A DNA stretch of 64,000 nucleotides from Candidatus Cloacimonadota bacterium (GTDB taxonomy: Bacteria; Cloacimonadota; Cloacimonadia; G963667145): positions 758,630 through 822,629 of the forward strand of contig OY781061.1 of assembly GCA_963676515.1 (NCBI GenBank), written 5' to 3'. The position numbers and the translations under genes are program-made. Positions 6,001 to 63,533 of the stretch are shown one piece after another. A model generated the notes under the pieces. The model searched no databases. It was not told the DNA's origin and saw nothing but the letters and a program-made list of their open reading frames with translations. How positions within the stretch are numbered: position 1 is the first letter of the stretch; each line of letters begins with the position of its first letter.

Positions 6001-9000
6001 TAAACATTATAGCTTATATCTGTTAAAGAAGCACTCTGCATGCCATCCCAAGAGACGACTATCTTGTCCTCGTACTCTCCATTTGTAGCTTCTATATTCT
6101 CTGGTGGCAAAAGCGGAGTCGTGATTGTCATAGTATCGCTATAGTCAGACATCCCTGTGATGTCTTTGTAAAATCTCACGCTGTAAGCATAAGTTGTCAT
6201 CATCATCAAGAATTTATTGTCCTCGAAGAAGCCTGGTACTCCTTGCCCTTCGTTAGGCCTCACGGCTACACTATATCTCTCATTTTGGCTTTCAGCCACT
6301 TCACGATAAAAGAAGATCGAATCCACCCAATCGTTCGGACAGGAGTAGCTGACTTTCACATATGAGCCGATAGTCAGTAAAGACGATATCACATCATCTA
6401 CCTCTGGAGTAGGCATCTTGGTGTATAGCGGCAACCACTCCGACCACGCAGAGTAACCGTATGTAGCTCTCTTTGAGCGTATGCGGACAGAATTATACTT
6501 AAATCTATCTGCCTCTTCTACAAAGATGGAGGTGTCTTTCGTCGTGCCGGGTATATCCTCGATGGTGTTTGCCACGGCTTCGCCTATCTTGTAGTCTATC
6601 TCATAGGTGATACTGTTCGGACTCAGCTCGCAGGGGTCTTCCCATGTCATACGGATGGAGTCTTCTATCAGAGCATACTCTCCGTCTTGGGCGGTGTATT
6701 TCACGAACTCTGGAGCGGGTATCTCTGCCCAACCAGAGTCTAGCATGCTCATCTCGGACTCTTGGGCTCCTACTTTGGCTATCAAGCCGTAATAGAACAT
6801 CTCGCCTATCTTCCTGTCGTCTAGGGCGTCCGTATAGCTCAGAGTCTTTTGGCTGTAGCCATCCCAGTCGCTTGGCTCTATATTACCGATGTAGTTCATC
6901 AGCTCTACGCTGTCACTCTCGCCTCTGTACACCAGATATTTAGTAGCTCCGTAGCTCGGGTTCGAGAGATTTTGAGGTGCATTCCACGAGACGATGATGG
7001 TGTCTTGCACATCGCCCTTGGTAGCTTCCACTCCATCGGGTGCCAAAAGCTGTGCTATACCGATGCACTCGTCCGACCAGTCAGATTTTTCGTTCTCGCA
7101 ATTTTCGTTGAGTGCTCTCACTTGGTAAACATACTTATGCCCTGTGAAAATGCCCACGACATCTTCCAAGCTCGTTGTTGTTACCGTTTGGTATGTCGTG
7201 TCTTCTTTGCCTGAGAAGTCGAAAGCTCGTTTCACTTCAAAACTTTTGGCAGCACTCGGTGTTGTCCATTCCAGATAGATAGCCATTATAGAGTCTTTCG
7301 TTATCTTAGTTACATACGGTGCAGGTGTCTTTGCCCATCCGTAATAAGGCTTACCTTCCTCTTGTTGCGAGAGTGGCGACCACACACCGTTTGGTGTCGT
7401 CTGCGTCCTGATCCGATAATAATATTTTGTTCCGGGGTGAAATTTACCAGCAGTGGCATTCACGGCGTTGTGCAGATAGAAGTAATGTGACTTACTGTTA
7501 TCTTCCACTTCTAGAGTGTCATACACATTTGTACCGTCGTTGTAGTCAGCGGCAGTTTGGTAAACGAATATCTGGAATCTGAGCTCATCGCCTGTAGGCA
7601 ATGATGGCCACGCAAGCCTAACATCCGAGAGATAAGTTCCCTTACTGACGGTGTCGAAGGTGATGGATGGTATGTCTATGTAGGTGTCAACCGTAACAAA
7701 TTCAGAGTTTTGCTCTATCCCTGTCGAGCCGACTCTGTTGGCTTGTGCTCTGTATTCGTAGGTCTTGCCCACTTTTAGATTCGCGTGTGTATAGTTCCCC
7801 TCTGTAGATGAGAGTGTTGCTAGTGGTTGGTATGTAGCGGCTACCTTCACCTCCAGAACTGTGCTGTCGGAGTTTTGGGATGGATCCCAGCTAAGATTGA
7901 TAGAGCTACTGCTCGAGATAGGCGTAGCTGCGAAGTTGGCTACTGGATACAGCTTGGTATAGCCAGTGACGACCTCGCTCTTGCAGCTAGCTCCAAACTC
8001 TGCACTGACTCCCTTCACGAAGAACTCTATATCCGCTCCGACCTCTTTTGCGGTGACGGTGTATTTGTACTCTTGCGTTATATCCGAGAGTTCACCTCGC
8101 ACCATTGCATCTTCTATGCCGTCATCATCGTTGCCCTCTTTCCACACTTGGTACTCTGTTACATCGTCCACTACGATCAGAGTGTCCCAAGTAATCACGA
8201 TGCTGTCTATCAGCCCTCTGCTCGCTTCCACATTCACTGGTCCTGCTATAGCTAGCCAGCCTACATCATAGAGAGCTTCCCATCCTTCCGAAATCTGTGT
8301 GCCTTTTTGCACAGCGATACGATACTCATACTTTTGTCCATCAAGCAAGGTTTCTTTTTTCTCATCCACAAACCTATTTGTCTCTATAGAAAAGCTAGTG
8401 GTGTCAGCAGAGCTGGTAGCTCCCACTCTAGATCTCTCTACGAAATAGCTCTCTGCCACAGCGACAGAGTCCCATGTCACCACGATGCTATCTCTATATT
8501 TACCGTCCGTTGCCTTTATGTTGCTCACATTGGGCATCTTGGTGTAACCTGTAGCTAAGTTCCTTTTGTATTCGGTGCTGAGGTCGCTATAACCCGTCTG
8601 ACCGATGTCTCCCAAGAACCCTCTAATCTTATAGGTGTAAGAGAACCCCTTGGCTACATTGCCATCATCGAGATAGACCGTATCTCCTGTAGTGGAAAAT
8701 CTCAGCTCGCTTGTATCTTTGGTAAAAATAGCAGAATCGCCAGACTCTATGTATCTGCATATTTGGTACTTTTCGGCTTTAGTCACCGCATCCCATTGGA
8801 CTACGATTTTGTCGGCATACTCTGCTTTGCTCGCTTCCACATGCTCTGGTGGTGTCGGCATCGCATAGCCAAACACGCTATCGCACGATACTTTTACATT
8901 TGGATAATCTTCCGTGGCGACAGCTAGCCTGTAGTAGTAATAGTGGTTAGCTTTTGCTGTCGCGTCTGTCCACTGGCTTACATCTTGCAGTCCACTAAAC

Positions 9001-12000
9001 ATCGTTACCCAAGCAACCGAGTCTTCTTCTCGCCTAAGACCAATGCAATTAACTCTGTCTCCCTTGTTCGTCCATGTCAGGAGTACACTGTCCTTCAGTG
9101 CTGTCTCTTGCGGACCTGTCGCCAAGAAGTTCCTTACTGCTGTCAACTGACTATAGCCAGTAGTAGTGTCCGAATATTCAGACCAAGCAGCACTCAAATT
9201 TTCTTCTGGGTAAACTGAGTCTATCTCTCTTTCAGCTGTTTTGTTTATCACCCGCACTCTATAAATGTACTTTCGCCCTTCTAGGACATTGTCTACATCT
9301 GTGTAATCTCCGTTGTTACTCACATCCAAGGTGACTTCTTCATTGCCTGTATTGGTCCTGAGCATCTGGTAAGTCAAAACATCGTCGCCAGCTTCTATCG
9401 TGTTCCACTTTATTACTATCTTGTTGTCTTCGCCTTTGCTCGCTCCATCGCTAAAGGTCAATATTGGCAACTCCGTGAAGCCCGGCTTGAACTCCGTCAA
9501 GACTGACTCTCTACCCTCATTAGGTTTGTAGGTGCTCAAGGCGAAATAAACCACTTGCCCAGTATCTGCATCTATGCTGCTATCTGCTGTCGCACCTTCG
9601 TAAACTGGCACGCTATAGCACATATAGCCATCACCTCTGTCATCTGCATCGGCATCAGCGATATAACCAAGCAGTTTTTTTTGCCCATGCTTTGCTGTTT
9701 TGTAATAAATCCCATAATTCACTGCGGCAGCTTTGCTAAAATACAAGTTGATCGTGTCGTCTTCGGTGGCTAAACTTGCCCTATCGAAATCTGGTGGCTG
9801 CAGCGAAACCCAGCCAGTATCAATATTAGAGGTGACCTCAGCATGCTTTTTGGTAGCGTAATCTGCTCTATGAGAAACTATTTTATAGAGATACTCCTTT
9901 TCGCAGTCCAGCGTAGAGCTTTCATCGTAATAAGTATATTCTGTACTTCCATCATTGTCTTTGTTCTCTATGACTTCGTAATCATCAGCACCACCTACGA
10001 CTTTTCTACATACCTGATACTTTGTCGCTCCGCTATTTTTCAAAGTCTTCCACTGAAGCATTATCTTGTCGGCGTATTCATCCTTCCCTGCGGTCAAGCT
10101 ATACGCAGCATCGAGCTTCATATAGCCTTCTACTATATTACTCAGGTCTGACTCTCCCCAGCCCTCTTTGCTCGTAGTGACCGCAAACTGGTAAATCTTG
10201 CCATAAGTCAGTTTGCCCTCTTCGGGGTAGAGAGTCACTGTAGAGTCGCCCACTGCCACACTTGTACCTTCTTCCCAGCCGTCATTGCTATCGTAATCTT
10301 TGTAATAAACTCTGTAGCTTTCGTTAGATTTGGACTCCCAGTATAAGATAATTTTGCTATCTAGGTTGTGAGAAACAGAGTCCAGCACAGGGATAGTAAG
10401 GGCTGTCATCGCACTACTGCTTAGCTCTACTTTCCCCGATGTCTCGTAATCTCCAGTGCTCAAAAGGATGCTACTTTCTGTCTCTATTTGATACATATAT
10501 TCCGTAGCTGTCGCCAAGCCAGTATCTTTGTAAGTCACCGTCTCGCCTGAAACTTTCTCTATAAAGGCGTAGGCGTCTGTGGTATTTTTTAGTTTGCGAT
10601 ACAAGTTGTAATTTTGTGCATATTTCACAGGATCCCACTCCAGATCTACCCAGTCAGTATTAACACCCACTGATTTAAATCCATCCGGAGCAGCTATCTT
10701 GATCCAGCCAGAATCTATGTCAGAATCTTCACTCGACTCTACATCGTTCTTACTACGGATCTTGTAAATATATTTCACGCCTCTATCTATGCTGTATTCG
10801 TCTTGTGTTAAGGTCATATTTGTTAGCAAGGTGTCCGCTGTTATAGACGGCAATCTAGCCCAGTCTCCAGCCATGCCTTGCTTGTATATCACTATATAAG
10901 ACTTAGCGTTTTCTACTTTATTCCATCGTACCACCACCACACTATCTCCGCCTTTGGTAGCAGACATGCTAAATGGAGGCTCGATCGCAGCGTATCCCAC
11001 TTTTTCGGTAGAATAATCGGACTCTCCTATCACCTTGCCACCGTCGCTTTCGTACACTGTAGCCGAGTAATAATATTTTTTACCTGGCTCGACATTACTT
11101 ATCACACCGTCTTCCAGCGTAATTATCCCCATACCGCCAGAGGAAGCAACCGCACCAAGCACATCCGTCAGCTTGACGACCGTTTCAGAGTTCAACTCTC
11201 GTCTATAAAGTTGCACCACCAGATCTTGCCCTTCTTCTGGAGCTACAGTTTGGACCTTTATTCGGATAAACCCAATAGAATCTTGTGTCGTCGTCAAGAT
11301 AGTAGGCGTAGGATATTTAGTGTAACCTAAGTTAAAATAATAACCTTCTGGATTTTTATCGTTCTCTCCACTGTTAGCTCCCGTCTCCTTGCCATCTTTC
11401 ACACAAGTCACTTTGAAGCGGTAGTTTACACCTATTTCAGAATCCATCCATTCGTAAGCTCTATTCTCAAATTCGTCACTACCATCTATTACTTCTGTTA
11501 CAGGTGTATAGCTCGTTTCGCTCTCTTTTTTCACATAGATTATATAACCCTCTATGCCATAGACTTCATCCCATGTAATGCGGATCTTGTCACTATAGTC
11601 TCCCTTACTGGCATATACATTCTCTGGCGACTCTACACTCGTCCATCCAGAGTCCAGTGCCGTCATCTCCGAAGATTTCTCGCCCTCATCCACGATCACT
11701 ATCTGTGTCTTGAAATAGTAAATCATCCCTTTGAGAATGTCGTCTTCCAGCTCCATGCCTTCACTGTTCTTGAGCTCAGACAAAGATATCGACACCTCAT
11801 TCTCTGTCACATTTTTGCTATCCGTGGAGTAATATATCATCGCATTGCCCAGCAAACTTTGCTCTGCAGCTACTTTGATCCTATCGGGGACATTCCAAGA
11901 GATACCGATCTTCTTTGGAAAGATACCCTTGGTAACTTCGACATTATTTAGAGTAGGAATCTCCAGCCATCCTATAGCTGGAGTGGAACGAGGCAGAGAT

Positions 12001-12347: not shown

Positions 12348-12699
12348 ACAGTGTCTCCTTCTTTATAAAATCGTGCAAGTTAAACGCATTTTTAAACATT
12401 TTTGGCATTTTTGGTAAATTTCCTATCTCTTTATAAAATAATATAGTTATCACTACTACTCCGACCTCTTTCACTCATTTTAGGGGTACAAAACACGCCC
12501 ATACTATCCAAGCTGGTCTTCCGTGTAGTTTTTGTCAAATATTTTTTAATCTTTTACCCACATCTCGTATTTTACCCAAAAACAAGCAAATACGGACAAC
12601 GAAAAAGAAGTAATCCACACAAAGACAACACTTTATCCACAACAAAACCAGCACAAAAAAACAAAAAAAAAGAAAAGAAGTAAACAAAACTAAATAAGA

Positions 12700-12744
12700 A
12701 AAATTACTGAAAAACAAATAAATGTTTCAATTTTCAGTAATTTT
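12700..12744. terminator. Perfect 14-bp inverted repeat (aaaattactgaaaa / ttttcagtaatttt) with a 17-nt loop, flanked by A/T tracts. It could be a bidirectional terminator or an operator, about 350 nt upstream of the giant gene.
   Basis: The palindrome is read directly from the sequence. U-rich flanks are present on both strands. Confidence 0.4.
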
Positions 12745-12949
12745 CTTTTATCCATTTAACTTTTTGTTTTCCAGTTAGATATGCACTTAGATTTTTTTTG
12801 CTTTTTTTTTCTGTTTTTTTAAACTACAAGAGAATAAAGAGTAAGAAATTGTCGTTTTTTTTCATAAATGGGCAAAAATAGCAATTTTTAATTGATAATA
12901 GAGGATTTCTACTTTTCTCTTTTAGAAACCTACTTTGTTAAAATCTGCT

Positions 12950-18178: not shown

Positions 18179-18194
18179 CTACTAAAAAACGCTC

Positions 18195-18335
18195 TACAAC
18201 TTCTCTCATCTAGACTTTAACTATCGGTCTTGGATTTGCACCAAATCAATCTTGCTCAAAGACAAAACTCGCGGACTATTACCGCCGGTCGGGAATTTCA
18301 CCCTGCCCTGAAGTGTTTATTTATAGACAAAGGAA
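18195..18335 (-). promoter_or_regulatory. FMN riboswitch (RFN element) upstream of ribD
   Basis: The minus strand reads GGGCAGGGTGAAATTCCCGACCGGCGGTAATAGTCCGCGAG...GGTGCAAATCCAAGACCGATAGTTAAAGTCTAGATGAGAGAAG, which is the conserved RFN core, upstream of a rib operon. Confidence 0.9.
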
Positions 18336-18390: not shown

Positions 18391-20019
18391 TCAAAGTCGG
18401 TTTGACAATTGCAACTCTTTTACTGCTATCTCTCTCATTTCCACTTTGCGGATTTTACCCGTAATAGTCATAGGAAATTCACTCACAAACTTCCAGTAGT
18501 GAGGGATTTTGTAACTGGCTATCTGACCTTTGCAATAGGCTCTAAACTCCTCTTCCGAGACATTACCAGAGTCTTCTTTAAGGATAACCCACGCCATTAC
18601 CCGCTCACCATATTTTTCGTCTGGCACACCGATAACCTGCACATCATAGATTTTGTCGTGATTCCGCAGATACTCCTCGATCTCGTGAGGCGAAATATTC
18701 TCACCGCCACGGATTATCATATCCTTAATTCTTCCCACAATCTTGATGTATCCACTTTCGTCCATCTCCGCCATATCCCCAGTGTGCATCCAGCGACCTT
18801 CATCGATCACTTTCGCTGTAGCATCTGGGCTGTTCCAATATTTGAGCATCACAGAGTAGCCACGAGTGCAAAGCTCCCCGCGAGTATTTCTGGGAACGAC
18901 CTTTTTCGTCTCAGGGTCTATTATTTTTATTTCCAGATGAGGATGCACTTTGCCCACAGTGGCACACCTTCTTTGCTCGTTATCGTCCAAAAAGGTTTGC
19001 GTACTCACTGGAGAAGTCTCTGTCATCCCATAGCATATGCCCACATCTTTCATATTCATTTTCTCTCGAATATCACGCATAACAGATTCGGGACATTGCG
19101 AACCAGCCATAATGCCTGTCCTTAAACTGGAGAAGTCGTAATCATCTATTTCGGGGAGATTTAACTCGGCAATAAACATAGCAGGCACTCCATAGAGTGA
19201 AGTTATCTTCTCATCCTGAACAGTTTTTATCACAGTCAGTGGGTCAAAAGCTTCGCCCGTAAAAACCATGCAGCAACCATGGGAAGTACACGCTAGATTC
19301 CCTAACACCATGCCAAAGCAGTGATAGAGCGGAACTGGTAGACACACACGATCATTTTCCGTATACTTTAAACGCTTTCCAATAAAATACCCGTTGTTCA
19401 AAATATTGTGATGTGAAAGAGTTGCCCCTTTGGGAAATCCTGTCGTGCCGCTGGTGTATTGGATATTGATCGGTTCATCAAACTCCAGATTAGCCTCGAT
19501 AGCCTCTATCTGCTCATTGGTGATTTTTTTGCCCACGGCGATTAGTTTGTCCCAGTCGTGCTCTATTACCAAGATGTCTTGTAAATTGACACACGAAGAC
19601 CTTACTTCGTTGAGTATCTCGATATAATTCGTCTTCCGAAACCCTTTTGACATAATGAGCAGTTTGGTTTCCGATTGCTTCAAGGCAAATTTTAGCTCTT
19701 GAGCTTTGTAGGCTGGGTTCACATTAACCATAATCGCACCCATGCGAGCCGTGGCATACTGAAGGATAACCCACTCAAAACGGTTGGGCGACCAGATTCC
19801 CACTCGATCACCTTTCTTTATCCCGTAGGCAATCAGTCCTTTAGCAATTTCACTAATCTGATCCCAAAACTCGCTGTAGGTAGCACGATAATTTTGGTAA
19901 GGAACTACCAACGCCTCTCTGTTGGGAAATTTCTCCACTGTCTTTTTTAGATTCTCCGATATGGTCTCACCCAGCAATGGTATTGAGCTTAAACCTTGTT
20001 CATACGATTTTTTTTTCAT
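18391..20019 (-). CDS. AMP-dependent acyl-CoA synthetase/ligase
   Basis: 542 aa; AMP-binding motifs (YTSGTTGFPKGA and the GE/GW-containing central region) of the fatty-acid-CoA ligase family. Confidence 0.75.
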   Translation of the reverse strand: MKKKSYEQGLSSIPLLGETISENLKKTVEKFPNREALVVPYQNYRATYSEFWDQISEIAKGLIAYGIKKGDRVGIWSPNRFEWVILQYATARMGAIMVNVNPAYKAQELKFALKQSETKLLIMSKGFRKTNYIEILNEVRSSCVNLQDILVIEHDWDKLIAVGKKITNEQIEAIEANLEFDEPINIQYTSGTTGFPKGATLSHHNILNNGYFIGKRLKYTENDRVCLPVPLYHCFGMVLGNLACTSHGCCMVFTGEAFDPLTVIKTVQDEKITSLYGVPAMFIAELNLPEIDDYDFSSLRTGIMAGSQCPESVMRDIREKMNMKDVGICYGMTETSPVSTQTFLDDNEQRRCATVGKVHPHLEIKIIDPETKKVVPRNTRGELCTRGYSVMLKYWNSPDATAKVIDEGRWMHTGDMAEMDESGYIKIVGRIKDMIIRGGENISPHEIEEYLRNHDKIYDVQVIGVPDEKYGERVMAWVILKEDSGNVSEEEFRAYCKGQIASYKIPHYWKFVSEFPMTITGKIRKVEMREIAVKELQLSNRL

Positions 20020-20357
20020 AAATCCCTAACCAATTTTTAATTGCTTTTTCAAAATTTTTATTATTTAAAAGATAAAACCAAGCTTTTTGCTCCCCTGTCA
20101 ACGGTTTTAAGTGGTTCTTTCCTGCGGTTGGACTAATTGTTTTTTTTTGGCTAGCTTATTTTGCCTTGACAGTAAATTTGAGTTATTGTGTTTAGGCTAC
20201 AGATGAGTTGTTTTAATAAAACGAGAGAGTTAATGATTTTGAAGGGAAGGTATAGATAATGAAGATAGCATGCCAAATAAGGAAGATATAGATAATGAAC
20301 ATAGCAAGTAGTTATTCGTCATTTTTTTGAAAATATTTTAGAACTGGAGTAAATACT

Positions 20358-20450
20358 ATGAATATGAGAAATTTCGTTGCAGTTAACAAATCAACTCTTG
20401 AGAATTATTCTAATGTTGAGGCTTCACCATTCTCTATCTTTGAAATATGA
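20358..20450 (+). CDS. Small ORF (30 aa) with GGAG RBS. It is in frame with the next small ORF across a TGA.
   Basis: ATG 20358; TGA 20448-20450. The next ATG at 20475 is in the same frame. Confidence 0.25.
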   Translation: MNMRNFVAVNKSTLENYSNVEASPFSIFEI

Positions 20451-20474
20451 CCAAATGGAGGACAGACCATTGTA

Positions 20475-20615
20475 ATGGCAGTTGCAGCGGATGGAAATGA
20501 ACAAATTGAAAAAAATAAGTTTGGTATCGGTATAGATTTTAATACAGCATGCGATAATTTTATTTCTGATCTCAAGAAAATCTTGGACAATACATATAAA
20601 ATTAATGAATTCTAA
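20475..20615 (+). CDS. Small ORF (46 aa) with GGAGGA RBS
   Basis: MAVAADGNEQIEKNKFGIGIDFNTACDNFISDLKKILDNTYKINEF; its stop overlaps the RBS of the next gene. Confidence 0.3.
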   Translation: MAVAADGNEQIEKNKFGIGIDFNTACDNFISDLKKILDNTYKINEF

Positions 20616-20627
20616 AATTAAAGGAGA

Positions 20628-21002
20628 ATGAAAATGGATTATAAATGGAACAAGGTTATTAACGCTGGCCAAAAAGCAATTGGATATATTGATATTTATG
20701 AAACAAATGCCAAAGGGATCGATATTAGAGCGATTGTTAACTTTTACCCAAATATAGAACAATTTGGAGATAATCGGATATGTAATACAACAATTTTATA
20801 TTCTTGTTCTAAAAGTGATATTACTGATGCATTTTTTCATTTTATTAACGATGATATTATTAAATTAATACAAGGTGAAGAAACTGAGAAATTTGATTCA
20901 ACAACTAAAAAGTTTGAACTGATGATGACTCAACAGTTCTTTGTAAAGGAACTCCCTGAAATGGATTACTTTACTCACGGAGATTATTCAGCAGAAGGAT
21001 AA
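20628..21002 (+). CDS. Hypothetical protein (124 aa) on the low-GC island
   Basis: Strong AAGGAGA RBS; no recognisable motif. Confidence 0.4.
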   Translation: MKMDYKWNKVINAGQKAIGYIDIYETNAKGIDIRAIVNFYPNIEQFGDNRICNTTILYSCSKSDITDAFFHFINDDIIKLIQGEETEKFDSTTKKFELMMTQQFFVKELPEMDYFTHGDYSAEG

Positions 21003-21032
21003 ACTTTAACCACAAAAAAACGACGTATAACA

Positions 21033-21097
21033 GCGAGTACCCGCTACGCTTCGCTCCGTCCAAATTGCTCCCTTCGGTCGCAACTTCGGGTACTCGC
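21033..21097. other. GC-rich hairpin (11-bp stem gcgagtacccg / cgggtactcgc, 43-nt loop) inside the AT-rich island
   Basis: The inverted repeat is read directly from the sequence. Its GC content contrasts sharply with its surroundings. Confidence 0.4.
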
Positions 21098-21183
21098 GGA
21101 ACATTGGGCACAATACAAGAAAAAAAACAGCATAGTTAGATGAAATACTTTACCTTTGCGATTAGACTTTAAATAGAATATTT

Positions 21184-21972
21184 ATGATTAAAATAGAACG
21201 ACTAAAAAAAGCCGATTTAGTGCATTATTGTCAGCAAATAGGCATTGATACAAAAGACAAAAACAAAGATATATTAATTGAAGAAGCTGTTAATTATGGC
21301 AATAATGAAATAACACAAGCATTGAAGAATAATAATGGTATTGAACTACTAACAACTAAAATAGAATGTCTTGCTGAAGATTATTCATCTAACTTAGATT
21401 TGAAAATTTCAGATAGAAAAGCTGAAATGAAAAAAGACGATAATTCTCACTATTTAATTTATCGAGTTTTGGGAATTACACAAGAAGATGGTCGCTTGAT
21501 TGATGAATATCAGAATACTGGACGTTTTTTATATAAATATGCAGGTTCATTTCTTGAAGAGGCAGCTTCTCTTTGTCTGAAATTTAAGAATATAAATGGA
21601 GGAAAAACCCTAATCGATAATAACCAAGGTAAGAAGCCTAAGACATTTGAAATTGACTTTTTGGATGGCAATGATGCTATCGAGATAAAATGGAGAGACG
21701 CAACAACGGACGGTGACCATATTACAAAAGAACACACTAGAGTAAAAGCAATAGAAAGTCAAGGTTATACACCTATTCGTGTTATGTTTTATTATCCTCA
21801 ACGTGAACAAGCAAAGAGAATACAAGCAACTCTTAAAACTATCTATGAAGGTGTTAATGGCAGCTATTTTGCAGGTGACGATGCTTGGACTTTCATTGAG
21901 AGTCATAGTGGCTATAACTTAAAAAAAATATTAACAAAAATTGCAGATAAAAGAACACCACTTAATGGATAA
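21184..21972 (+). CDS. Type II restriction endonuclease (PD-(D/E)xK fold)
   Basis: 262 aa; FEIDFLDGNDAIEIKWRD gives a D...EIK catalytic motif. Its stop overlaps the start of the adjacent methyltransferase (ATGGATAA). Confidence 0.6.
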   Translation: MIKIERLKKADLVHYCQQIGIDTKDKNKDILIEEAVNYGNNEITQALKNNNGIELLTTKIECLAEDYSSNLDLKISDRKAEMKKDDNSHYLIYRVLGITQEDGRLIDEYQNTGRFLYKYAGSFLEEAASLCLKFKNINGGKTLIDNNQGKKPKTFEIDFLDGNDAIEIKWRDATTDGDHITKEHTRVKAIESQGYTPIRVMFYYPQREQAKRIQATLKTIYEGVNGSYFAGDDAWTFIESHSGYNLKKILTKIADKRTPLNG

Positions 21973-23173
21973 AAATAGAATATATAAAGGAAACTGTCTT
22001 GTGCAATTAGCTAAGATTAATTCCGAATCAGTAGATTTAGTATACTTCGACCCACCATTTTTTACACAGAAAAAACATTCTCTTGTAACAAAAGATAACA
22101 CTAAAAAATACGAATTTAGTGACAGTTGGAATTCTATAGAACAATATCTTGAATTAATAGAATTATGTCTAGTTGAATGCCGAAGAATTCTTAAAAAGAC
22201 TGGTAGTGTATTTTTACACTGTGACAAAATTGCGTCACACTATATACGAGTAGCTCTTGACAAGGTATTTGGTGTGGAGCATTTCAGAAGTGAAATAATA
22301 TGGAGTTACAAAAGATGGTCAAACTCTAAAAAAGGTCTTTTAAATTCACATCAAAACATCTATTTTTACTCTAAGGGCAAAGATTTTAAATTTAACCAAT
22401 TTTATACAAATTATGCCCCAACGACGAATGTTGACCAGATTTTACAAGACCGAAAAAAAACCTCAACTGGTAAATCCGTTTACAAAACAGATGTAAATGG
22501 TAATGTCATATTAGGCAAGGAGAAGAAAGGAGTTCCATTATCAGACACTTGGGAAATACCATATTTGAACCCTAAAGCTAAAGAACGAGTTGGATACCCA
22601 ACTCAGAAACCTGTTTTATTACTAAAAGAAGTAATTAAAATTGTCACTAATGAAGGTGATTTAGTAGTAGACCCCTTTTGTGGTAGTGGTACAACTTGTG
22701 TTGCTGCTAAATCGATGTCTAGAAATTTCATTGGTATAGATATTTCTAGTGATGCAGTGGAACTAGCAAATAGTAGACTTGAAAAAATGATAATTACAGA
22801 TTCAAATCTATTAAAGAAGGGAGCCAATAGCTATTTAGAAAAAAATGAAGCTGACATTTCATTACTTAAAAGCATTGATGCAATTCCGGTACAACGAAAT
22901 TCAGGTATCGATGGATTTTTAAAAATGCATTTTAAAGACAAACCTGTACCTGTAAAGATTCAAGCTAAAACTGAATCATTAGATGATGCTATTGAAAAAC
23001 TGGAAAAAGCCTCGAATAAAAAAGGCTATGAATTAAAGATAGTAATTCAAACATCCAGTAATAATATCCCTAGCCTTTTTGAACATAATTCAGATATAAA
23101 AATAATAAAGTCCAATAAAATAATCATTGAAGAATTGGCAAACATAAGTACTGTGCCCAACAGGCTAGCATAG
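21965..23173 (+). CDS. DNA methyltransferase, beta-class N6-adenine/N4-cytosine (motif IV DPPF precedes motif I FCGSGTT)
   Basis: VYFDPPFF...DPFCGSGTTCVAAKSMSRNFIGIDIS; there is an about 130-aa C-terminal extension. Confidence 0.8.
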   Translation: MDKNRIYKGNCLVQLAKINSESVDLVYFDPPFFTQKKHSLVTKDNTKKYEFSDSWNSIEQYLELIELCLVECRRILKKTGSVFLHCDKIASHYIRVALDKVFGVEHFRSEIIWSYKRWSNSKKGLLNSHQNIYFYSKGKDFKFNQFYTNYAPTTNVDQILQDRKKTSTGKSVYKTDVNGNVILGKEKKGVPLSDTWEIPYLNPKAKERVGYPTQKPVLLLKEVIKIVTNEGDLVVDPFCGSGTTCVAAKSMSRNFIGIDISSDAVELANSRLEKMIITDSNLLKKGANSYLEKNEADISLLKSIDAIPVQRNSGIDGFLKMHFKDKPVPVKIQAKTESLDDAIEKLEKASNKKGYELKIVIQTSSNNIPSLFEHNSDIKIIKSNKIIIEELANISTVPNRLA

Positions 23174-23224
23174 ATAATATGGCAATGAGGCTGTTACTCC
23201 ATTTTCAGTGGTTTCTAGCAGCTC

Positions 23225-23285
23225 CGCCAAATCAGAGATTTGACAGTGTCTGAAATGGAAAGTTCACAGTAAAATCTCTGATTTG
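23225..23285. other. Perfect 16-bp inverted repeat (gccaaatcagagattt / aaatctctgatttggc) with a 29-nt spacer at the right edge of the R-M island
   Basis: Read directly from the sequence. No U tract follows on either strand. Confidence 0.4.
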
Positions 23286-23376
23286 GCTAAGTAATGGTCA
23301 GAACGATTTTTGATTTCTACATGCCATACTATCCATCTAGCAATCGTTAAAAACTAGGCTCAAGATAAATTTCTCT

Positions 23377-25930: not shown

Positions 25931-26938
25931 CTATTTAGTTACAACAGATAAATAAGCATTTTTAACACCTATATCTCTGAAATGGAATTGTCCCATTTGC
26001 CTATTTAATTTATCTGACCATAATTTTGGTGCTTTTTCCTCCCAAGGCAAAACATAAAAAGAAAAATGATTATTTTCTTTAAATTTTATCAATTCAGAGG
26101 GTATTTTTATACTAAATGACCTTATATTCCTGATTTCTTTATCAACCGTTTTTATTTCAAAGTTTTCTTCGTTTATAGAAAAATAAAAATTCTCAGCTTG
26201 TCCAAATCTAATCCCACTATGAAATCCATCAAAAATCAAAGTAATTTCAGCTTCTAAAAATTCTTTTTCTGTAATTCCATTATCCAAGAGAACAGATTGA
26301 GGCCTAAAATCTTTTACAAAAGCAATTGCTGCATATCTATCATAGAATCCAAAAGATTCTTTTAAATATTTAGTTTTTTCGTTTTCCTCATATAATAAAT
26401 TCCCGCTAAAACTTTGAAATTTGACACCCAAAGATAAAAGATTTTTTATATTTTTTTCTGTTTTTGCAATTGCTTTTATTCTCTTGTAATTGCTAAAATC
26501 ACAATCAGAAATTTTTTCCCTATATTCACTGACAAATATCCTTTGAATCTCAAGAGGGGAAACTGCACCAGCCAAGTAATTTTCATTCTCCTTATCTAAA
26601 AAAATAATTCCAGAAGATTTTTGAGAGGAAATAGTTTTATGCTGTGCATTGTAATTAAGTCCATTTTGGGAATAAACATTGTCACCCAAATGAATTTCTT
26701 GTTCATTCAAAAACCAAATAATTCCATATTTTGAAGGTTCTTTTTGGATAATTTCTATTTTGTTCCCAGTCCCATTGCTTTGAATATTTATATTTTCACT
26801 ACCTTCAGGAGAAAAGATGTTTTCTCCATCGGTCTTATTTGTCGAAGGATCTAAAATAATACCTACAATAGCCACTATCACGCTAACAAAAGCTAGAACA
26901 AGACCAATTATTTTAAATATTGGCAATTTTTTTTTCAT
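25931..26938 (-). CDS. Hypothetical N-terminally anchored protein (335 aa) on a low-GC islet
   Basis: Single N-terminal TM segment; rich in N, K, E and I; no recognisable motif. Confidence 0.45.
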   Translation of the reverse strand: MKKKLPIFKIIGLVLAFVSVIVAIVGIILDPSTNKTDGENIFSPEGSENINIQSNGTGNKIEIIQKEPSKYGIIWFLNEQEIHLGDNVYSQNGLNYNAQHKTISSQKSSGIIFLDKENENYLAGAVSPLEIQRIFVSEYREKISDCDFSNYKRIKAIAKTEKNIKNLLSLGVKFQSFSGNLLYEENEKTKYLKESFGFYDRYAAIAFVKDFRPQSVLLDNGITEKEFLEAEITLIFDGFHSGIRFGQAENFYFSINEENFEIKTVDKEIRNIRSFSIKIPSELIKFKENNHFSFYVLPWEEKAPKLWSDKLNRQMGQFHFRDIGVKNAYLSVVTK

Positions 26939-32638: not shown

Positions 32639-35179
32639 ATGAACTTCAATAAATACACCATTAAATCGAAAGAGTGTTTGCAAAAAGCCGCCGATTTGGC
32701 TACAGAGTACGGACATCAGGAGATAAGAGGTCTGCACCTTTTGCTCGCTGCTCTGACAGTAGAGGACTCGCTCGTGCCGACTTTGCTCCAAAAGGTGGAA
32801 ATCCAGCCTACTGTAGCCCAAGAGCGGACAAAAGCAAAGCTGAGCGAGTACCCGAGGGTAGAGGGCAGCTCTCCGGCTTACCTCAACGCAGAAGCCAACA
32901 AAGCTCTTTTGCTTGCCGAAAAAATCGCTGGTCAGTTTCAAGACGAGTTCGTAAGCCTAGAGCATCTTTTGCTCGCTTTGGTGAAAAGTTGTCGCGACAT
33001 CCAAGAAATATTGGGCAATCCCCAAGAGAAAGATTTGCTCAAAGCTATCCAAGAGATAAGAGGCAACCACAAGGTGGACAGCGAGAATCCCGAAGCGAAG
33101 TACCAAGTATTGGACAAATACACGCGAAACCTCACGGACTTGGCGAGAAAGGAGAAGCTCGACCCTGTAATTGGCAGAGACGATGAAATCCGTCGCACTA
33201 TCCAGATATTGTCTCGTCGCAGGAAAAATAACCCTGTGCTCATCGGAGAGCCAGGAGTAGGGAAGACAGCCATCATCGAAGGCTTGGCACGGAGGATTAT
33301 CGACCGTGATGTCCCCGAAAACCTCAAGAACAGAACAGTTTTGGAGCTAGATATGGCTTTGCTACTAGCAGGGGCGAAATACCGTGGCGAGTTTGAGGAA
33401 AGGCTCAAAGCGGTCTTGAAAGAGGTGGAGAGCTCCAACGGCGAGATTATCCTCTTCATCGACGAGCTCCACACCATAGTGGGAGCCGGTGCTGCCGAGG
33501 GGCAGAGCGATGCCTCCAATATGCTCAAGCCTGCTCTCGCCAGGGGCGAGCTGCGTTGCATAGGTGCGACCACCCTGAGCGAGTACAAGAAGTACATCGA
33601 AAAGGACGCCGCTCTCGAACGCCGCTTTCAACCTGTAATTGTCGGAGAGCCAAGCATTGCCGACACCATCTCCATCTTGCGAGGCATAAAGGACAAATAC
33701 CAAGTGCATCACGGCTTGCAAATCACCGACGAAGCTCTGATAGCAGCAGGCAAGCTCTCTGCACGATACATCAACGATCGGTTCCTACCCGACAAAGCTA
33801 TCGACCTGATGGACGAAGCGTGTGCCTCGGTGCGGATGCAAATCGACTCGATGCCCCAAGAGCTGGACGATATGAAACGCAAGATACAGCAGTTGGAGAT
33901 AGAAGAGCTTTCTTTTAAAGGCGAAGCCAAAGGGAAAAGGGAAAAGGCTCAATCTGAAATCGCTAATCTCAAAGAGAAGTTTTCTATTATGATGGACAAA
34001 TGGAAGCAAGAGAAGGACAATCTGAACAAAATCGGTGATGTGAACGACAAGCTGGACAAAGCCAAGTCGGAGATGGAGATTGCCCAAAGAAATGGCGACC
34101 TAGAGACTGCGTCGCGGCTGAAATACGGCACGATTATTGCACTGGAAAAACAACTGGAAACTGCCAAGGAGAATTTGAGTAAGAAGGCGGAAGGTTCTCA
34201 GATGGTGAGCAAAATCGTGGACGCCGCTACCATCGCCACGATTATCTCCAAATGGACGAACATCCCGCTGGAGAGCCTGCTAAAGAGCGAAGCCGAAAAA
34301 CTGACGAATATGGAAGAGATTCTGAGCAAAAAGGTCATCGGGCAAAAGGAAGGCATCGTCGCTGTGTCCAACGCCATCCGCAGAGCCAGAAGCGGATTTT
34401 CCGATGAGAACGCTCCCATCGGCTCGTTCCTCTTTTTGGGTCCAACCGGAGTCGGCAAAACTTACCTCACGCAAGAGCTGACTCGCCTTTTGTTCAACGA
34501 CAAAAAAGCGATGTTCCGCTACGATATGAGCGAGTTTATGGAGAAGCACTCCGTCTCCAGACTCATCGGTGCTCCTCCGGGATATGTCGGTTACGAAGAA
34601 GGCGGCAAGCTCACGGAAGAGGTGCGACGACACCCTTATTGCGTTTTGCTGTTTGATGAAATCGAAAAGGCTCATCCCGATGTTTTCAATATTTTCTTGC
34701 AAATCTTGGACGAAGGCAGACTCACCGATGGCAAAGGTCGCACGGTCAATTTCCGCAACACCATCATCGTGATGACCAGCAACATCGGAGCGAATCGCCT
34801 ACTGGAAGCCAAAAACAGCCAAGATGTGGAAGCGGAAGTTTTGCAAGACATCAAGTCACATTTTCGCCCAGAGTTCATCAACCGCATCTCACAGACGGTG
34901 GTTTTCCACAAGCTAAAAGAGAAAGAGATCAAGCAAATCGTCCTTTTAGAGCTTTCCACTCTGCAAAAACGCTTACAAGAGAAAGGGTTTACGCTGTCGT
35001 TGAGTGATAGAGCTGTGGACGCTCTTGCCAAAATTGGCTTCGATCCGCAGTTTGGAGCAAGACCGATAAAAAGAGCTATCCAAGAGAATTTGGAGAATAT
35101 GCTCGCTCAGAAGTTTCTGCAAGGCGAGCTCCCAGAAAAAGTGGAAGTGGATTATGATAAGGGGTTTGTGATTAAATAA
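32639..35179 (+). CDS. clpB: ATP-dependent chaperone ClpB
   Basis: 846 aa; two AAA+ modules ([16 protein letters not shown]) and a middle coiled-coil. Confidence 0.9.
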
Positions 35180-35192
35180 TCTCAGTATCTTG

Positions 35193-35226
35193 CTGGCGAG
35201 CTTTCTGGCTCGCCAGTTTTGTTTTT
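35193..35226 (+). terminator. clpB intrinsic terminator
   Basis: ctggcgagc-tttctg-gctcgccag followed by ttttgttttt. Confidence 0.85.
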
Positions 35227-35254
35227 CGCTCTTCTCTTTAAAGGTGTCCGCCTA

Positions 35255-35470
35255 CAGCGGATTACTTTGTCACTTTTCCCTTTTGATGAAAAAAGCGAAA
35301 AGTAACACAAAAGGTAAATTCAAAATACGAAATCAATTAGCTAAATTCCTAAACCATCCATCTCACGCTAATACTGCTCGTGCTATGAATCACTTTTGTT
35401 CTTTTTTTGGTGATATAGCACATCGCAATTAGCGTAGTTCAGTCGGTATAAGTAATTTTACGCTTCTTGA
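35255..35470. repeat. Mosaic hairpin repeat, copy 3 (inverted copy of modules D and C)
   Basis: The reverse complement aligns along its length with 13395-13580 and 36880-37111. The outer stem of module C has changed from acgctg/cagcgt to gctaat/attagc, a compensatory change. Confidence 0.75.
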
Positions 35471-35587
35471 TTTGAGTATTTCCTTGGTGGCTTCTGGGGA
35501 TTTGTGTCAAATACTTGAAAAACCACATGTGGTATGCCTAGTTTGAGCGGGCTAAAGCCCTTGAGTTTACTGCTAAACGACAATTAT

Positions 35588-36430
35588 TTATGAGCTAGTG
35601 TTAAGCAATGCCTTTTTTATTTTAACCATTTTTAACTCATTAGATTTCTCAAGAGTTATAATTTTATCCATAAAATCAGAAAATCCTTTCTTGGTAACGA
35701 CAAAAATATATGCCATTTTTGATTCTTTCTTATAATGGTAATTAAAAACAAGAATTGAGGACTCAACTTTTATTAGTTTTTCTTCTTGCATTTCATATAA
35801 ATCTTCATTTATTAAAAGAATTGGCATATATAAAAAGTGTCTAAAATGCTCATTCGCAGAAATGGATTCTGGATTACCAATCTCAAATAATTCCAACCTA
35901 GATTCACAATATTCTACAATTTTTGATAATCCGCTATGGATATTGTCTGGATGAAAAGCCATTAATTCATCTTTGTTTTTCTTTTTTTGGAATGAGCAAT
36001 ATTGCGTATAGGTTTTTACCTTTTCATTTTCTATTAGTGAAGTATAAAATGAATCATGCAATCTATAATCGATACCCACAGGTAATGTAAATGCTTCTTT
36101 CAAACCACACCATGCTTCAATGTTTGGTGAAGGTTCAGCTTTTGTTAATAGTATTAGGGGTAATCTGTTATTTTTAAGCTCAAAAACAAATTTTGTCTTG
36201 CAAATAACCTTTTCTTCGACATACCTATAGTATTCTGCAGTAATGTCAATTTCTCTGCTTTTGCCAGTAATTGGGTCTTCAATAGCTTGGTTTGATTCTA
36301 CGAAAAATCCAGCTTTAGAAAGACTTGAAGATATTTCTGATTCCAATAAATATCCTGACCTTTTTAAAGCTTCTAGCATTTTTTCCTCTGACAATTTATT
36401 GTGAGTGCTCATTTCTTTAAGGTTTTGCAC
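35588..36430 (-). CDS. Hypothetical protein (280 aa) with an N-terminal PD-(D/E)xK-like nuclease motif, on a low-GC islet
   Basis: GY..ESEI...REIDITAE...FVFELK has the spacing of a restriction-endonuclease-like catalytic core. The gene is flanked by inverted copies of the repeat family. Confidence 0.4.
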   Translation of the reverse strand: MQNLKEMSTHNKLSEEKMLEALKRSGYLLESEISSSLSKAGFFVESNQAIEDPITGKSREIDITAEYYRYVEEKVICKTKFVFELKNNRLPLILLTKAEPSPNIEAWCGLKEAFTLPVGIDYRLHDSFYTSLIENEKVKTYTQYCSFQKKKNKDELMAFHPDNIHSGLSKIVEYCESRLELFEIGNPESISANEHFRHFLYMPILLINEDLYEMQEEKLIKVESSILVFNYHYKKESKMAYIFVVTKKGFSDFMDKIITLEKSNELKMVKIKKALLNTSS

Positions 36431-36624
36431 AACAATCCACTCCCCTCAACATGTCTCACACACTTCCATATTGGCACAGTATGCGAACGCTTTGTTCGGT
36501 TATTCTCTATTCCTTCGCATAATCTTTTCATCTATACCCTCTCGCTCTTTCCCGCATAATAGCTGTTCCTATTTCCTGTCAATCAAAATAAGTTACGCCC
36601 GAAATTTGGAAATTCATAGATAAA

Positions 36625-37111
36625 GGTCTGTGTCTCTGGCTCTATCCCGTGAAGCGGAGGAAACCCCAACCCAACTAGCAAGTGAGAAAGCCCTACGACT
36701 CTCGTGCATCGTGTTAGAGAATGGATTCCCGCTTCCGCGGGAATGAGGGCTGGTGGGCAGGAATAATGGCTGGTGATAACGCAAAGCGAGTGGCGTGCAG
36801 GAATGATGGCTGGTGGTATGCTTTCTTGTTTCTCTATCCTCATCCTCGCGAAAGCGGGGATCCAGAGATGGGTTGGGCTAAGAAAAAACTTTAAGCAAGT
36901 AGCTTACAATTACTTATGCCGACCGAGCTACGCTGAAAAGCGATGTGCTATATCTCCCAAAAACGATAAAATGTGATTCATAGCACGAGTTTTGCCAGCG
37001 TGCGAGGGATGGCTTAGTAATTTTGCTAGTGGCTTAGGTTTTTTTGACTTTACCTTTTGTTACTTTTAGCTTTGGTCAGCCAAAGGGAAAAGTAAGACCC
37101 TCCGTCAGGAG
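36625..37111. repeat. Mosaic hairpin repeat, copy 2 (module order B-inverted, E with 3 tandem sub-repeats, A, C, D)
   Basis: Modules C and D are collinear with copy 1. The module-E hairpin carries the compensatory pair cccgc/gcggg where copy 1 has cctgc/gcagg. Module B is present as its reverse complement. Confidence 0.75.
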
Positions 37112-37388
37112 AGCAAATTAAAGAAAATGAACTATTATTTTGGGAATGCATAGCAAACAAAGCATACAGTTAATTAATTAACACATATACACTCCCAAGC
37201 TGGAGCTTGGGAGCGAAAAAAAAAATTTCATATTATTCTCCTACTTTAAAAGCCTAGCAAAATATTCGTGATGCAAATAAAACATTTTTTGAATTGAGTA
37301 CAACGGCTTGTATATAAATCGGTTAGCATTTCGAAGCCCATCGCTTCAAAGCACTATTAATTTTCTACATTATTGTGCACAGCATTTT

Positions 37389-38249
37389 TTATTCTTTATT
37401 AATCAATCCTCCTAAAATTACTGAAATCATACCTATCATATATACTAATAGAAATGGCTCCTTGAAAAATAAAATCAACAATATAGTTGAAATCACAGGA
37501 GTCAAAAAAACGAAGGGTGCCATAAACGAGGCTTTACCAATTTTTAGTGCTCCAATCCAGAAAATATATGAGATTCCGTTTACAAATATTCCGTTTATTA
37601 AAATCGGCAAAATAGTATCTTGTGTCGGCAATTTAAATTCCGAAAGAAGAATCATTGAAATAAATGAGATTACTGTTGCGGTTAAAAAATAAATTGTAAC
37701 AAGAGATAATGAATCAATTTTAACCTTTTTACTGAGTACAGAAAAAAGCCCAAATACGAACGCTGCTAACAATACAATACTATCAACAAAAAAATTATCA
37801 AAGTGAATATCAGTCAATTCCCCTTTAGTCAAAACCATAAAAACTCCGAAGAATCCTAGAATTATTGAAATCACTTTTCGCAAATTCAGTCTTTCTTTTA
37901 AAATCAAGATTGATAAAACTATCACAAAAATTGGCCAACAGTATTGTATTATAAGAACCTCAATGCCTTTTGCATTCGCGTATCCAAAATACACTAAAAT
38001 ATAGTACAAGTATGTTCCTAGCAATCCTAAAACAATTGATTGAATCCAATCTTTAGCTGAAAGCCTTAGAAGTAAAAAAACTTTTTTCTTTATCAGGATT
38101 ATCGCTAAAAAAGTCAAAAATGAAATCACGCTTGACCAAAAAAGAAATTGGTAATTATTAAGATTTGATTGTCCTAATTTTGAAACTACAGGAATCATTG
38201 CCCACAATAGGACACAAATCAGAACATATATTATTGATTTTGTTTTCAT
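37389..38249 (-). CDS. EamA/DMT-family transporter (second, divergent, low-GC copy)
   Basis: 286 aa; a 10-TM EamA-like pattern. Confidence 0.6.
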   Translation of the reverse strand: MKTKSIIYVLICVLLWAMIPVVSKLGQSNLNNYQFLFWSSVISFLTFLAIILIKKKVFLLLRLSAKDWIQSIVLGLLGTYLYYILVYFGYANAKGIEVLIIQYCWPIFVIVLSILILKERLNLRKVISIILGFFGVFMVLTKGELTDIHFDNFFVDSIVLLAAFVFGLFSVLSKKVKIDSLSLVTIYFLTATVISFISMILLSEFKLPTQDTILPILINGIFVNGISYIFWIGALKIGKASFMAPFVFLTPVISTILLILFFKEPFLLVYMIGMISVILGGLINKE

Positions 38250-38416
38250 CTTATCTTTTACTTTCTCCCCTATATAATAACTGTTTCTTTTGCTGTAAAT
38301 CCAAAATAGGTTACGCTCGAAATTTTGTAAATATTGTCAATCTCTTCCCTTTCGTTGGAAACTAGAGAAAAAAGGCAGGATAAATCCTGCCTTTTCGTTA
38401 TCGTTAAGAAATTGTC

Positions 38417-60580: not shown

Positions 60581-60585
60581 AATTT

Positions 60586-61710: not shown

Positions 61711-62242
61711 CTTCTCCTTTTATGTTGTCTAATTTCGCCGAGTTCAATTCAATATCTGTAAATAAATTTTTGCCATACATTACATTTTCTCCACGAGTTA
61801 TTTTTACTTTTTCTTGAGTAAAAACGCTATTATTTGCTAAGTTCCAATAAAGTTTCGTTGTCTCTAGCACGCCATTTTCGCTCAAGATTTTTACATTACT
61901 CCAAGCTTCCAGCATCTTTTTCACTTCGTTAATCTCAGCACTATCCGCTGTCATGGTTGACACTATCCGATCGTTATCGTCAAAGGCATAAATCTCTATT
62001 TCTTTCGCAAAAATTTGTTTTTTTTTCGCAAACTCTGTTATATGTTTCGCTTTCAAATACCAGTTAATTTTTTCGTTCTCAAGAGATATTAAAGTAACAG
62101 TGTCACTAGTTTTTTCGGGTAATTCGTCTTTACCTTTAAATTTTTTGTTGCGTTTTAGTATGTCTTCACCTTTTACACAACCCAAAAAAAGAAAACTAAG
62201 AAAGAAAACTAGATAAACTTTTGATAAAAATATTTTGTGCAT
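61679..62242 (-). CDS. lptC: LPS export system protein LptC
   Basis: 187 aa; N-terminal anchor; context between kdsC and lptA. Confidence 0.6.
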   Translation of the reverse strand: MHKIFLSKVYLVFFLSFLFLGCVKGEDILKRNKKFKGKDELPEKTSDTVTLISLENEKINWYLKAKHITEFAKKKQIFAKEIEIYAFDDNDRIVSTMTADSAEINEVKKMLEAWSNVKILSENGVLETTKLYWNLANNSVFTQEKVKITRGENVMYGKNLFTDIELNSAKLDNIKGEGEVETENLNF

Positions 62243-63521: not shown

Positions 63522-63533
63522 ATTTTCTCCTGT

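Follow-up and report, generated by a model that had tools for sequence, protein, structure and literature searches.

How did a restriction-modification (R-M) gene pair come to lie in an AT-rich block between the promoter of an acyl-CoA synthetase gene and a lipoprotein/lgt operon on a Cloacimonadales chromosome, and what is the unit that moved? The locus is part of a 64,000-nt stretch of the Candidatus Cloacimonadota bacterium assembly GCA_963676515.1 (contig OY781061.1), which we call the window and whose coordinates are used throughout. Our answer is that the island is probably a short, decaying array of integron-type cassettes without an integrase, whose main cargo is an intact two-gene R-M cassette. 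It would thus resemble a CALIN, the term that doi 10.1101/2025.06.18.660453, citing Cury et al. 2016, uses for a cluster of attC sites lacking an integron-integrase. Rather than a single insertion, the island is a mosaic made up of two or more cassettes and remnants. Its outline and the parts of the R-M cassette are as follows.

20110-23376: AT-rich island, 3.27 kb, limits set by synteny
20110-20244, no strand: left island remnant without an open reading frame (ORF), common to the relative L001 and absent from the relatives L002 and L003
21104-23346, plus strand: cassette 2 (R-M), from its 5' end TTGGGCACA to the crossover of the attC-like site
21104-21112, plus strand: R-M cassette 5' end TTGGGCACA, the reverse complement of 23152-23160
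21151-21158, plus strand: TACCTTTG, promoter-like motif within the cassette, 25 nt upstream of R
21184-21972, plus strand: R, Type II restriction endonuclease of the ApaLI family (PF09499) with an N-terminal SAP-like segment
21965-23173, plus strand: M, beta-class N6_N4 DNA methyltransferase (DPPF; PF01555) with a conserved C-terminal extension
23155-23352, plus strand: attC-like site (attC2), with R'' GCCCAAC, arms GCTAGCATAGATAATATGGCA/TGCCATACTATCCATCTAGC and R' G|TTAAAA
23226-23287, no strand: perfect 16-bp inverted repeat (arms 23226-23241 and 23272-23287), an internal hairpin of attC2
23347-23376, no strand: tail after the last crossover, common to L001, absent from L003 and reaching the lipoprotein stop codon

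The two large genes are readily assigned. R matches RE_ApaLI in Pfam (PF09499, E 3e-83) and REase_II in PADLOC (4e-81), and M matches N6_N4_Mtase in Pfam (PF01555, E 1e-55) and MTase_II in PADLOC (7e-172, residues 2-392). In M the DPPF motif (motif IV) precedes FCGSG (motif I), which is the beta-class order, and the two genes overlap by the 8 nt ATGGATAA. GC content is 0.319 in the island against 0.428 in the rest of the window, dropping from 0.44-0.55 to about 0.30 over about 20020-23350, and GC at third codon positions (GC3) is 0.19-0.24 in the four island ORFs against 0.47-0.57 in flanking genes. An earlier note, made from the letters alone, had described a low-GC type II R-M island with a PD-ExK endonuclease and a beta-class DPPF methyltransferase gene overlapping by 8 nt, and all of this holds. 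It had also named uniform composition and conservation of the pair at this locus in all relatives as grounds for doubting acquisition; GC and GC3 are not uniform with the flanking genes, and the pair is absent from the same slot in three relatives. Low GC alone is nevertheless no proof of transfer here: at 60500-63900 (60.5-63.9 kb), core genes form a block that is just as AT-rich; judged by their translations, these genes look LptA/LptC-like or like KdsC, peptide deformylase and YajC. The proof of acquisition is synteny, not composition.

The relatives were fetched through the flanking acyl-CoA synthetase and are referred to as L001, L002 and L003 (95%, 87% and 85% amino acid identity in that protein). 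The island is absent from L002 and L003, in which the synthetase promoter nearly abuts the lipoprotein stop codon: in L003 the conserved promoter element CTGTCAAC, the -35-like TTGACA of the minus-strand synthetase gene, is followed directly by that stop codon, and in L002 just a 91-aa ORF lies between promoter and lipoprotein. Aligned with the window, both diverge after the conserved CTGTCAAC at about 20109. L001 is homologous to the window until about 20260 (blastn, window 20001-20260 against L001 10013-9759, 84% identity) and again from 23345, and in between carries other cargo, namely an Abi_C gene, a 79-aa ORF and a 97-aa tyrosine-recombinase fragment. Among these genomes the R-M pair is present only in the one studied here. 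The synthetase-lipoprotein slot is thus variable and filled with defence genes, and since two relatives are empty and a third holds different defence genes, the locus was acquired, as the earlier note had proposed. L001 has in addition a separate AbiLi/AbiLii insertion (AAA_21 + RloB, L001 6260-8183), which lies in the 3' end of the lipoprotein gene with about 30-45 nt of the gene end duplicated on both sides. Taken together, the slot resembles the defence islands and variable hotspots of other genomes, with R-M here, Abi_C and AbiLi/AbiLii in L001 and nothing in two others; it differs from them in that a mechanism of turnover can be identified, which is cassette exchange at G|TT cores with a junction sequence common to two genomes.

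What identifies a cassette is its ends. Integron core sites read G|TTRRRY (R') and RYYYAAC (R''). When a cassette is opened at G|TT, the linear form has TTRRRY in front and its own attC at the back, and the R'' of that attC is complementary to the start of the cassette. Only 21098-23173 is common to the window and other R-M loci, at about 74% identity in DNA and 75-81% in protein; neither of the small ORFs nor the repeats pointed out in the earlier note belong to this common unit. We retrieved 80 further R-M loci, with R before M throughout. The R-M cassette starts with TTGGGCACA, complementary to TGTGCCCAA within the window, and the reverse complement of TTGGGCACA, TGTGCCCAAC, is an R'' core in the last codons of M. 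The same relation is found elsewhere with other letters: the module starts GGAACATTGGGCACAAT in the window and GGAACGTTAGGCACAAT in the metagenome contig L082, and the last M codons hold the corresponding reverse complements ACTGTGCCCAAC and ACTGTGCCTAAT. In the subfamily closest to the window pair the upstream and M 3' motifs change jointly, so that

upstream TTAGGCACA pairs with M 3' TGTGCCTAA
upstream TTAGCCACA pairs with M 3' TGTGGCTAA
upstream TTGTGCCT pairs with M 3' AGGCACAA

Over 53 non-redundant loci the mean longest inverted repeat is 7.38 in true pairs against 6.46 in mismatched pairs, and the observed sum is reached in 0/10,000 permutations. More distant loci, with M about 53% identical, and the copy on a 6-kb Psychrobacter plasmid, which also has R before M, are without these motifs. 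The R-M unit of the window thus has a 5' TTRRRY complementary to its own R'', and by sequence definitions the pair is an integron-type gene cassette.

The other end of the cassette has the layout of an attC site. At 23155-23352 an R'' core inside M (GCCCAAC, 23155-23161) and an R' core (G|TTAAAA, 23346-23352, crossover 23346|23347) enclose imperfect inverted repeats, with arms that form a 20-nt pair matched at 17/20 positions in a site of 198 nt. We scanned both strands of the window with a hand-built test, which joined an R'' weight matrix with arm complementarity and was trained on 23 sites from other loci. Of 3330 AAC...GTT candidates this site ranks first, with a score of 21.1 that is reached in 0/100 dinucleotide-shuffled windows (maximum 19.3). 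It folds at -31.2 kcal/mol on the bottom strand (z = -4.28) and -29.4 on the top strand; the bottom-strand fold is also favoured in 4/5 homolog attC sites. The 16-bp hairpin within it extends to 23 nt at 91%, and the surrounding 171 nt fold with z = -4.96; this hairpin has no counterpart in homologous cassettes, which have attC sites of 131-134 nt. We therefore place the predicted mobile unit between TTGGGCACA (21104) and the attC-like site (23155-23352).

Two other stretches with high scan scores were rejected. One, 12642-12819, scores on both strands and is an intergenic palindrome of A/T runs, a low-complexity hairpin. The other, 36716-36878, is a GC-rich repeat with ATT as R' and no cassette-end complementarity; it holds three copies of a CACCAGCC(A/C)T(C/T)ATTCC(T/C)GC-like repeat without a GTT core and lies in a low-GC block (35100-38600, between clpB and pnp) that also has a 280-aa orphan ORF (35588-36430, minus strand) and an EamA transporter gene.

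Elsewhere, the palindromes that precede R-M cassettes have the classical R''-L''...L'-R' layout and fall into two size classes, of 52-74 nt and about 131 nt, and the cassettes' own attC sites measure 131-134 nt in five loci (L100, L103, L105, L133 and L169). When 14 sites of the 131-nt class are aligned, 13/14 predicted stem pairs show compensatory changes, and the class keeps the internal motifs AGTGnTAAAT, TTTGTGCT and GCTTCGAAATC. Sites of this class are seen around R-M cassettes in many unrelated contigs (L095, L100, L101, L103, L133, L152-L169) and in L001. A covariance model (R1), built from 14 sites that are all foreign to the window and to L001, matches L001 8176-8308 over its full length at 60.9 bits (E 2.6e-11), a canonical attC of 132 nt. 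This site ends CCG|TTAAAAAAC and the site in the window ends TCG|TTAAAAAC, and from there the two genomes are homologous, so that their homology restarts at a CG|TTAAAAA junction. Two genomes with different cassettes and one crossover junction are the pattern produced by cassette exchange.

Upstream of the R-M cassette lie a second, less well preserved cassette and the trace of a recombinase gene.

20233-20262, plus strand: residual first codons MILKGRYR* of a decayed tyrosine-recombinase gene, aligned with the L001 ORF start MALKGRYKKYKPKK
20245-20270, plus strand: direct repeat copy 1, GGAAGGTATAGATAATGAAGATAGCA, which contains ATAGATAAT
20281-20306, plus strand: direct repeat copy 2, GGAAGATATAGATAATGAACATAGCA, ending 5 nt before the G|TT of cassette 1
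20311-20329, plus strand: cassette 1 5' junction G|TTATTCGTCATTTTTTTG, with G|TT at 20311|20312
20312-21103, plus strand: cassette 1, bounded by a 19-nt inverted repeat
20358-20615, plus strand: ORF-A, an orphan frame of 85 codons with an in-frame TGA at 20448-20450
20628-21002, plus strand: ORF124, a small orphan protein without a family match
21025-21109, plus strand: putative degenerate attC1, with R'' GTATAAC, an 11-bp GC-rich stem and R' ATTGGGC

The inverted repeat that defines cassette 1 joins G|TTATTCGTCATTTTTTTG (20311-20329) to CAAAAAAACGACGTATAAC (21013-21031), 17/19 positions being complementary; GTT opens and AAC closes its arms, which is what the 5' end of a cassette and the R'' belonging to it should show. 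The palindrome at 21025-21109 is plausibly the degenerate attC of this cassette: it directly abuts the start of the R-M cassette, where homologous loci have a canonical attC, its stem pairs 21033-21043 with 21087-21097, and its bottom-strand DNA fold is -17.6 kcal/mol (z = -2.85). The GC-rich element 21033-21097 was also considered as a dispersed repeat, of which no other copy was found in the window, the loci or viral contigs, and as a known RNA, for which the RNA fold (z = -0.64) gave no reason; both ideas were dropped. ORF-A has no Pfam or PADLOC match and no homolog besides itself, so that recoding of its TGA cannot be argued, and in a decaying array a pseudogene is the more probable interpretation of the frame. 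ORF124 has no match in Pfam, NCBIfam or PADLOC; its sole homolog (62% identity) is on a 1.5-kb metagenome contig in an unrelated context, it does not resemble the 123-aa ORF that L082 has in the corresponding place, and its AlphaFold model is poor, with a predicted local distance difference test score (pLDDT) of 45.6, too low for a fold search.

The direct repeats sit where a recombinase gene was deleted, since they overlap its codons: their first 10 nt (GGAAGRTATA) align with the codons K-G-R-Y of the L001 recombinase ORF. That 97-aa ORF matches PF00589 and shares 46% identity over 103 aa with a frameshifted recombinase of L082 (3687-4788), and in both L001 and L082 the remnant lies upstream of a cassette array and in the same orientation. 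In the window, 20020-20420 has no recombinase remnant beyond roughly 8 codons, and tblastn of the window found no other tyrosine recombinase. L082 carries a second tyrosine recombinase, intact, at 9389-10282 (297 residues within the locus, running off its end), which adjoins an IS91-family Y2 transposase at the other end. The repeats themselves, 19 bp at 20252-20270 and 20288-20306, extend to 26 nt with 24/26 identical; no further copy occurs in the window, and none is expected by chance. The window holds three copies of their 9-mer ATAGATAAT, one in each repeat and one in the L'' arm of attC2, against a chance expectation of 0.63, and the equivalent regions of L001 and L082 are rich in TATAG/TATAC repeats. 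The repeats may be a scar of duplication or rearrangement, or attI-type accessory recombinase-binding sites. Pattern scans covering viral contigs and 85 loci, not metagenome or genome collections, added little: the 20-mer of the direct repeat gave 5 hits among IMG/VR viral contigs, all one identical giant-virus sequence and a single chance match, the hairpin pattern matched none of these contigs, and short-word blastn of both repeat stretches against the 85 loci found no match.

Several of our own observations weigh against a decaying cassette array. At 198 nt and with three internal hairpins, attC2 is longer and more complex than a typical attC, and the R1 model of the 131-nt class matches nothing in the window, attC2 included. 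The scan that ranks it first is hand-built and was trained on structure-selected sites, and is not the published IntegronFinder model. In the same scan attC1 scores 17.1, sixth in the window and not significant by itself; its R' reads ATT where GTT is expected and its R''-L'' spacing is atypical. Within the window no integron integrase was found, so that there is no complete integron. The recombinase remnants of L001 and L082 have as their best NCBIfam match the integron integrase TIGR02249, at 84-90 bits with XerD at 77-78, yet they are fragments about 6-13 bits above XerD, below every curated cut-off (265 for TIGR02249), and no IntI-specific insert is visible in them. Finally, no avoidance was seen in the window of TCTAGA, the recognition sequence of XbaI (8 sites, 10.2 expected), or of GTGCAC, that of ApaLI (6 sites, 10.4 expected); these counts are uninformative, and the absence of depletion is as expected for a recent arrival.

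The same remnants admit a bolder interpretation, that the arrays of this genome, L001 and metagenome contigs such as L082 form a distinct integron lineage with its own attC family of roughly 131 nt, a small XerC/D-like recombinase and a TATAG/TATAC-repeat attI-like region. The recombinase would be encoded upstream of the cassettes and co-oriented with them, and the 26-bp direct repeats would be its accessory sites, sharing ATAGATAAT with the L'' arm of attC2. We regard this lineage as doubtful. The only taxonomic pointer for the metagenome contigs comes from the named R homologs, and it is to Bacteroidota.

The earlier note had seen the direct repeats as the left edge and the inverted repeat as the right edge of the island, with possible recombination or att-like sites there. 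All the sequence features that it listed are present, with positions 1-2 nt off (1 nt for the first direct repeat, 1-2 nt for the inverted repeat), and site-specific recombination sites do lie at the edges, but they are not the repeats that it named: the direct repeats are 130-200 nt inside the island and the inverted repeat is a hairpin internal to attC2. This bears on the idea of a conventional genomic island, integrated in one piece in the manner of a phage or an integrative and conjugative element, with these repeats as its att-like ends. Both repeats are real and unique in the window, a tyrosine-recombinase remnant adjoins the direct repeats, and the island is absent from two relatives, all as such an island would have it. 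Yet the boundaries are at about 20110 and 23376 and the repeats at 20245-20306 and 23226-23287; the repeats of the two sides do not resemble each other, and no target sequence is duplicated. Recombinase coding sequence makes up the first 10 nt of the direct repeats, the break in homology with L001 coincides with a G|TT core rather than with the hairpin, and the block is a mosaic of which 21098-23173 alone is common to other R-M loci. We consider integration in one piece highly improbable.

A self-contained mobile R-M unit would account for an inverted repeat that flanks both genes and co-varies between loci. Its 9-10-bp terminal inverted repeats would be TTGGGCACA and TGTGCCCAA, and it would move by transposition or by R-M-promoted illegitimate recombination, without integron machinery. 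R-M units with short flanking repeats have reportedly been described by Furuta, Abe and Kobayashi, and the Psychrobacter plasmid has the same gene pair without these motifs. What the idea leaves aside is that the motifs agree with GTTRRRY and RYYYAAC, the core sites of integrons, that they stand within R''-L''...L'-R' palindromes with compensatory stem changes and in arrays with other cassettes, and that no transposase is consistently linked to the pair; we think it highly improbable. An artefact of assembly or binning, by which a piece of Bacteroidota DNA ended up in a Cloacimonadales contig, seems to us scarcely credible. The source appears to be a metagenome-assembled chromosome and the nearest homologs of R and M, at 75-81% amino acid identity, are from Bacteroidota, but a single contig runs from the island into host sequence on either side, the outer 150 nt and the 30-nt tail are common to the same locus of the independently assembled L001, and about 74% DNA identity to any Bacteroidota sequence is not contamination-grade.

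On the reading of the island as a decaying cassette array, a tyrosine recombinase of the integron-integrase type presumably took up the R-M cassette by recombining single-stranded attC at G|TT. The cassette would have brought its own promoter-like element and an attC-like site that starts in the last codons of M. M would methylate the recognition site on host DNA, and R would cut incoming DNA that is unmethylated. The recombinase gene would later have been deleted down to a few codons, leaving the direct repeats at the deletion junction. What the sequence data show directly is the identity of the genes and that they are intact, the relatives' lack of the island or different cargo in its place, the end motifs of the cassette with their covariation, the fold of the attC-like site with its rank in the window, and the junction common to L001. 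We infer that R and M are active, what they recognise, which recombinase acted and whether the direct repeats have a function.

An active Type II system is the most likely state of the pair as its sequence presents itself, both proteins being full length relative to homologs with invariant residues kept. R is a PD-(D/E)XK endonuclease of the ApaLI/XbaI family, in which D158 and E167-x-K169 are invariant across 12 homologs from several phyla. It has 5110 homologs, the nearest, apart from the source itself, in Flammeovirga (81% identity); look-ups of the exact R and synthetase proteins of the window returned no record. The best relatives of M among solved structures in the PDB are CcrM, MboIIA and RsrI, and M probably methylates adenine at N6, with which DPPF fits. 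In domains, R-then-M order (kept in more than 70 loci), short overlap and catalytic-type residues, the pair is like other pairs of a PF09499 ApaLI-family endonuclease and a beta-class N6_N4 methyltransferase. The family is named after ApaLI (GTGCAC), yet one homolog, from Microscilla (63% identity), carries the UniRef name R.XbaI, after XbaI (TCTAGA), which is one source only; DPPF suggests adenine methylation. The leaders of homologous cassettes keep the region of TACCTTTG as TTTGTA(C/T)CTTTG, and TACCTTTG fits the Bacteroidetes -7 consensus, TAnnTTTG.

At loci L106-L132 and L152-L171, R is 60-70% identical to that of the window and the partner M belongs to one of two lineages, about 75% and about 53% identical to the window M; one subgroup of R is without the N-terminal SAP-like segment of about 55 aa. 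The Tenacibaculum phages PTm1 and PTm5 (AP019524, AP019525) match only the last 50 residues of R (68% identity), in a protein annotated as a type II restriction endonuclease.

Integron cassettes that encode R-M systems, XbaI among them, are known (PMC10661359, citing Rowe-Magnus 2001), and both R-M and Abi cassettes are established in integrons (PMC10661359; doi 10.1101/2025.06.18.660453). Like the XbaI R-M cassette of the Xanthomonas chromosomal integron, the unit described here consists of two genes, starts with TTRRRY and has an attC R'' that overlaps the 3' end of its last gene; it stands, as such cassettes do, in an array with others, and its R family is the one named R.XbaI by one source. 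It differs in its Cloacimonadales host, in the lack of an integrase found in the window and in a 198-nt attC-like site with extra hairpins. A CALIN is recognised by at least two attC sites within 4 kb and no integrase, and the locus has a short co-oriented array in which less than 4 kb separates the attC-like sites, with no intact integrase close by. Decay is visible in the G-to-A change of one R' core and the stop codon in ORF-A. Only one of the two attC-like sites, attC2, is statistically convincing: attC1, scoring 17.1 and with ATT for GTT, is backed only by its context and by the 17/19 inverted repeat with the cassette 5' end, and without it this would be a single-attC locus. Because a remnant of the recombinase is still visible, the locus may be a degraded chromosomal integron rather than a CALIN.

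These observations give what had looked like a generic AT-rich R-M island an identifiable mechanism, and document cassette turnover at one chromosomal slot in Cloacimonadales; we found no paper in the open-access literature that links integrons or attC sites with Cloacimonadota or Cloacimonadales. The family of R-M cassettes (63-81% amino acid identity) extends over Bacteroidota, Cloacimonadota, Desulfobacterota, Cyanobacteria, Vibrio and others, and with integron sites in the subfamily closest to the window pair it offers one route by which defence genes cross phylum boundaries. For annotation, it is of use to know that attC sites can begin inside coding sequence and be mistaken for terminators or att sites. 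The current understanding of integrons or of R-M systems is unchanged.

Some minor results concern the rest of the window. An Rfam search of the island with E up to 1 gave no match, and at the gathering threshold the whole window gave an FMN (flavin mononucleotide) riboswitch only (RF00050, 110 bits, 18194-18319, minus strand), which lies upstream of a ribD/ribE riboflavin operon and adjoins the acyl-CoA synthetase gene. Scans with promoter and terminator consensus sequences gave counts not above those of shuffled controls. A second variable slot is seen at 25931-26938 (minus strand), where a 335-aa orphan ORF with a GC content of 0.28 and no Pfam or PADLOC match is absent from L001-L003; at this slot L003 has about 5 kb of other DNA (L003 2246-7441), which includes a homolog of N6_N4 methyltransferases at 6433-7155.

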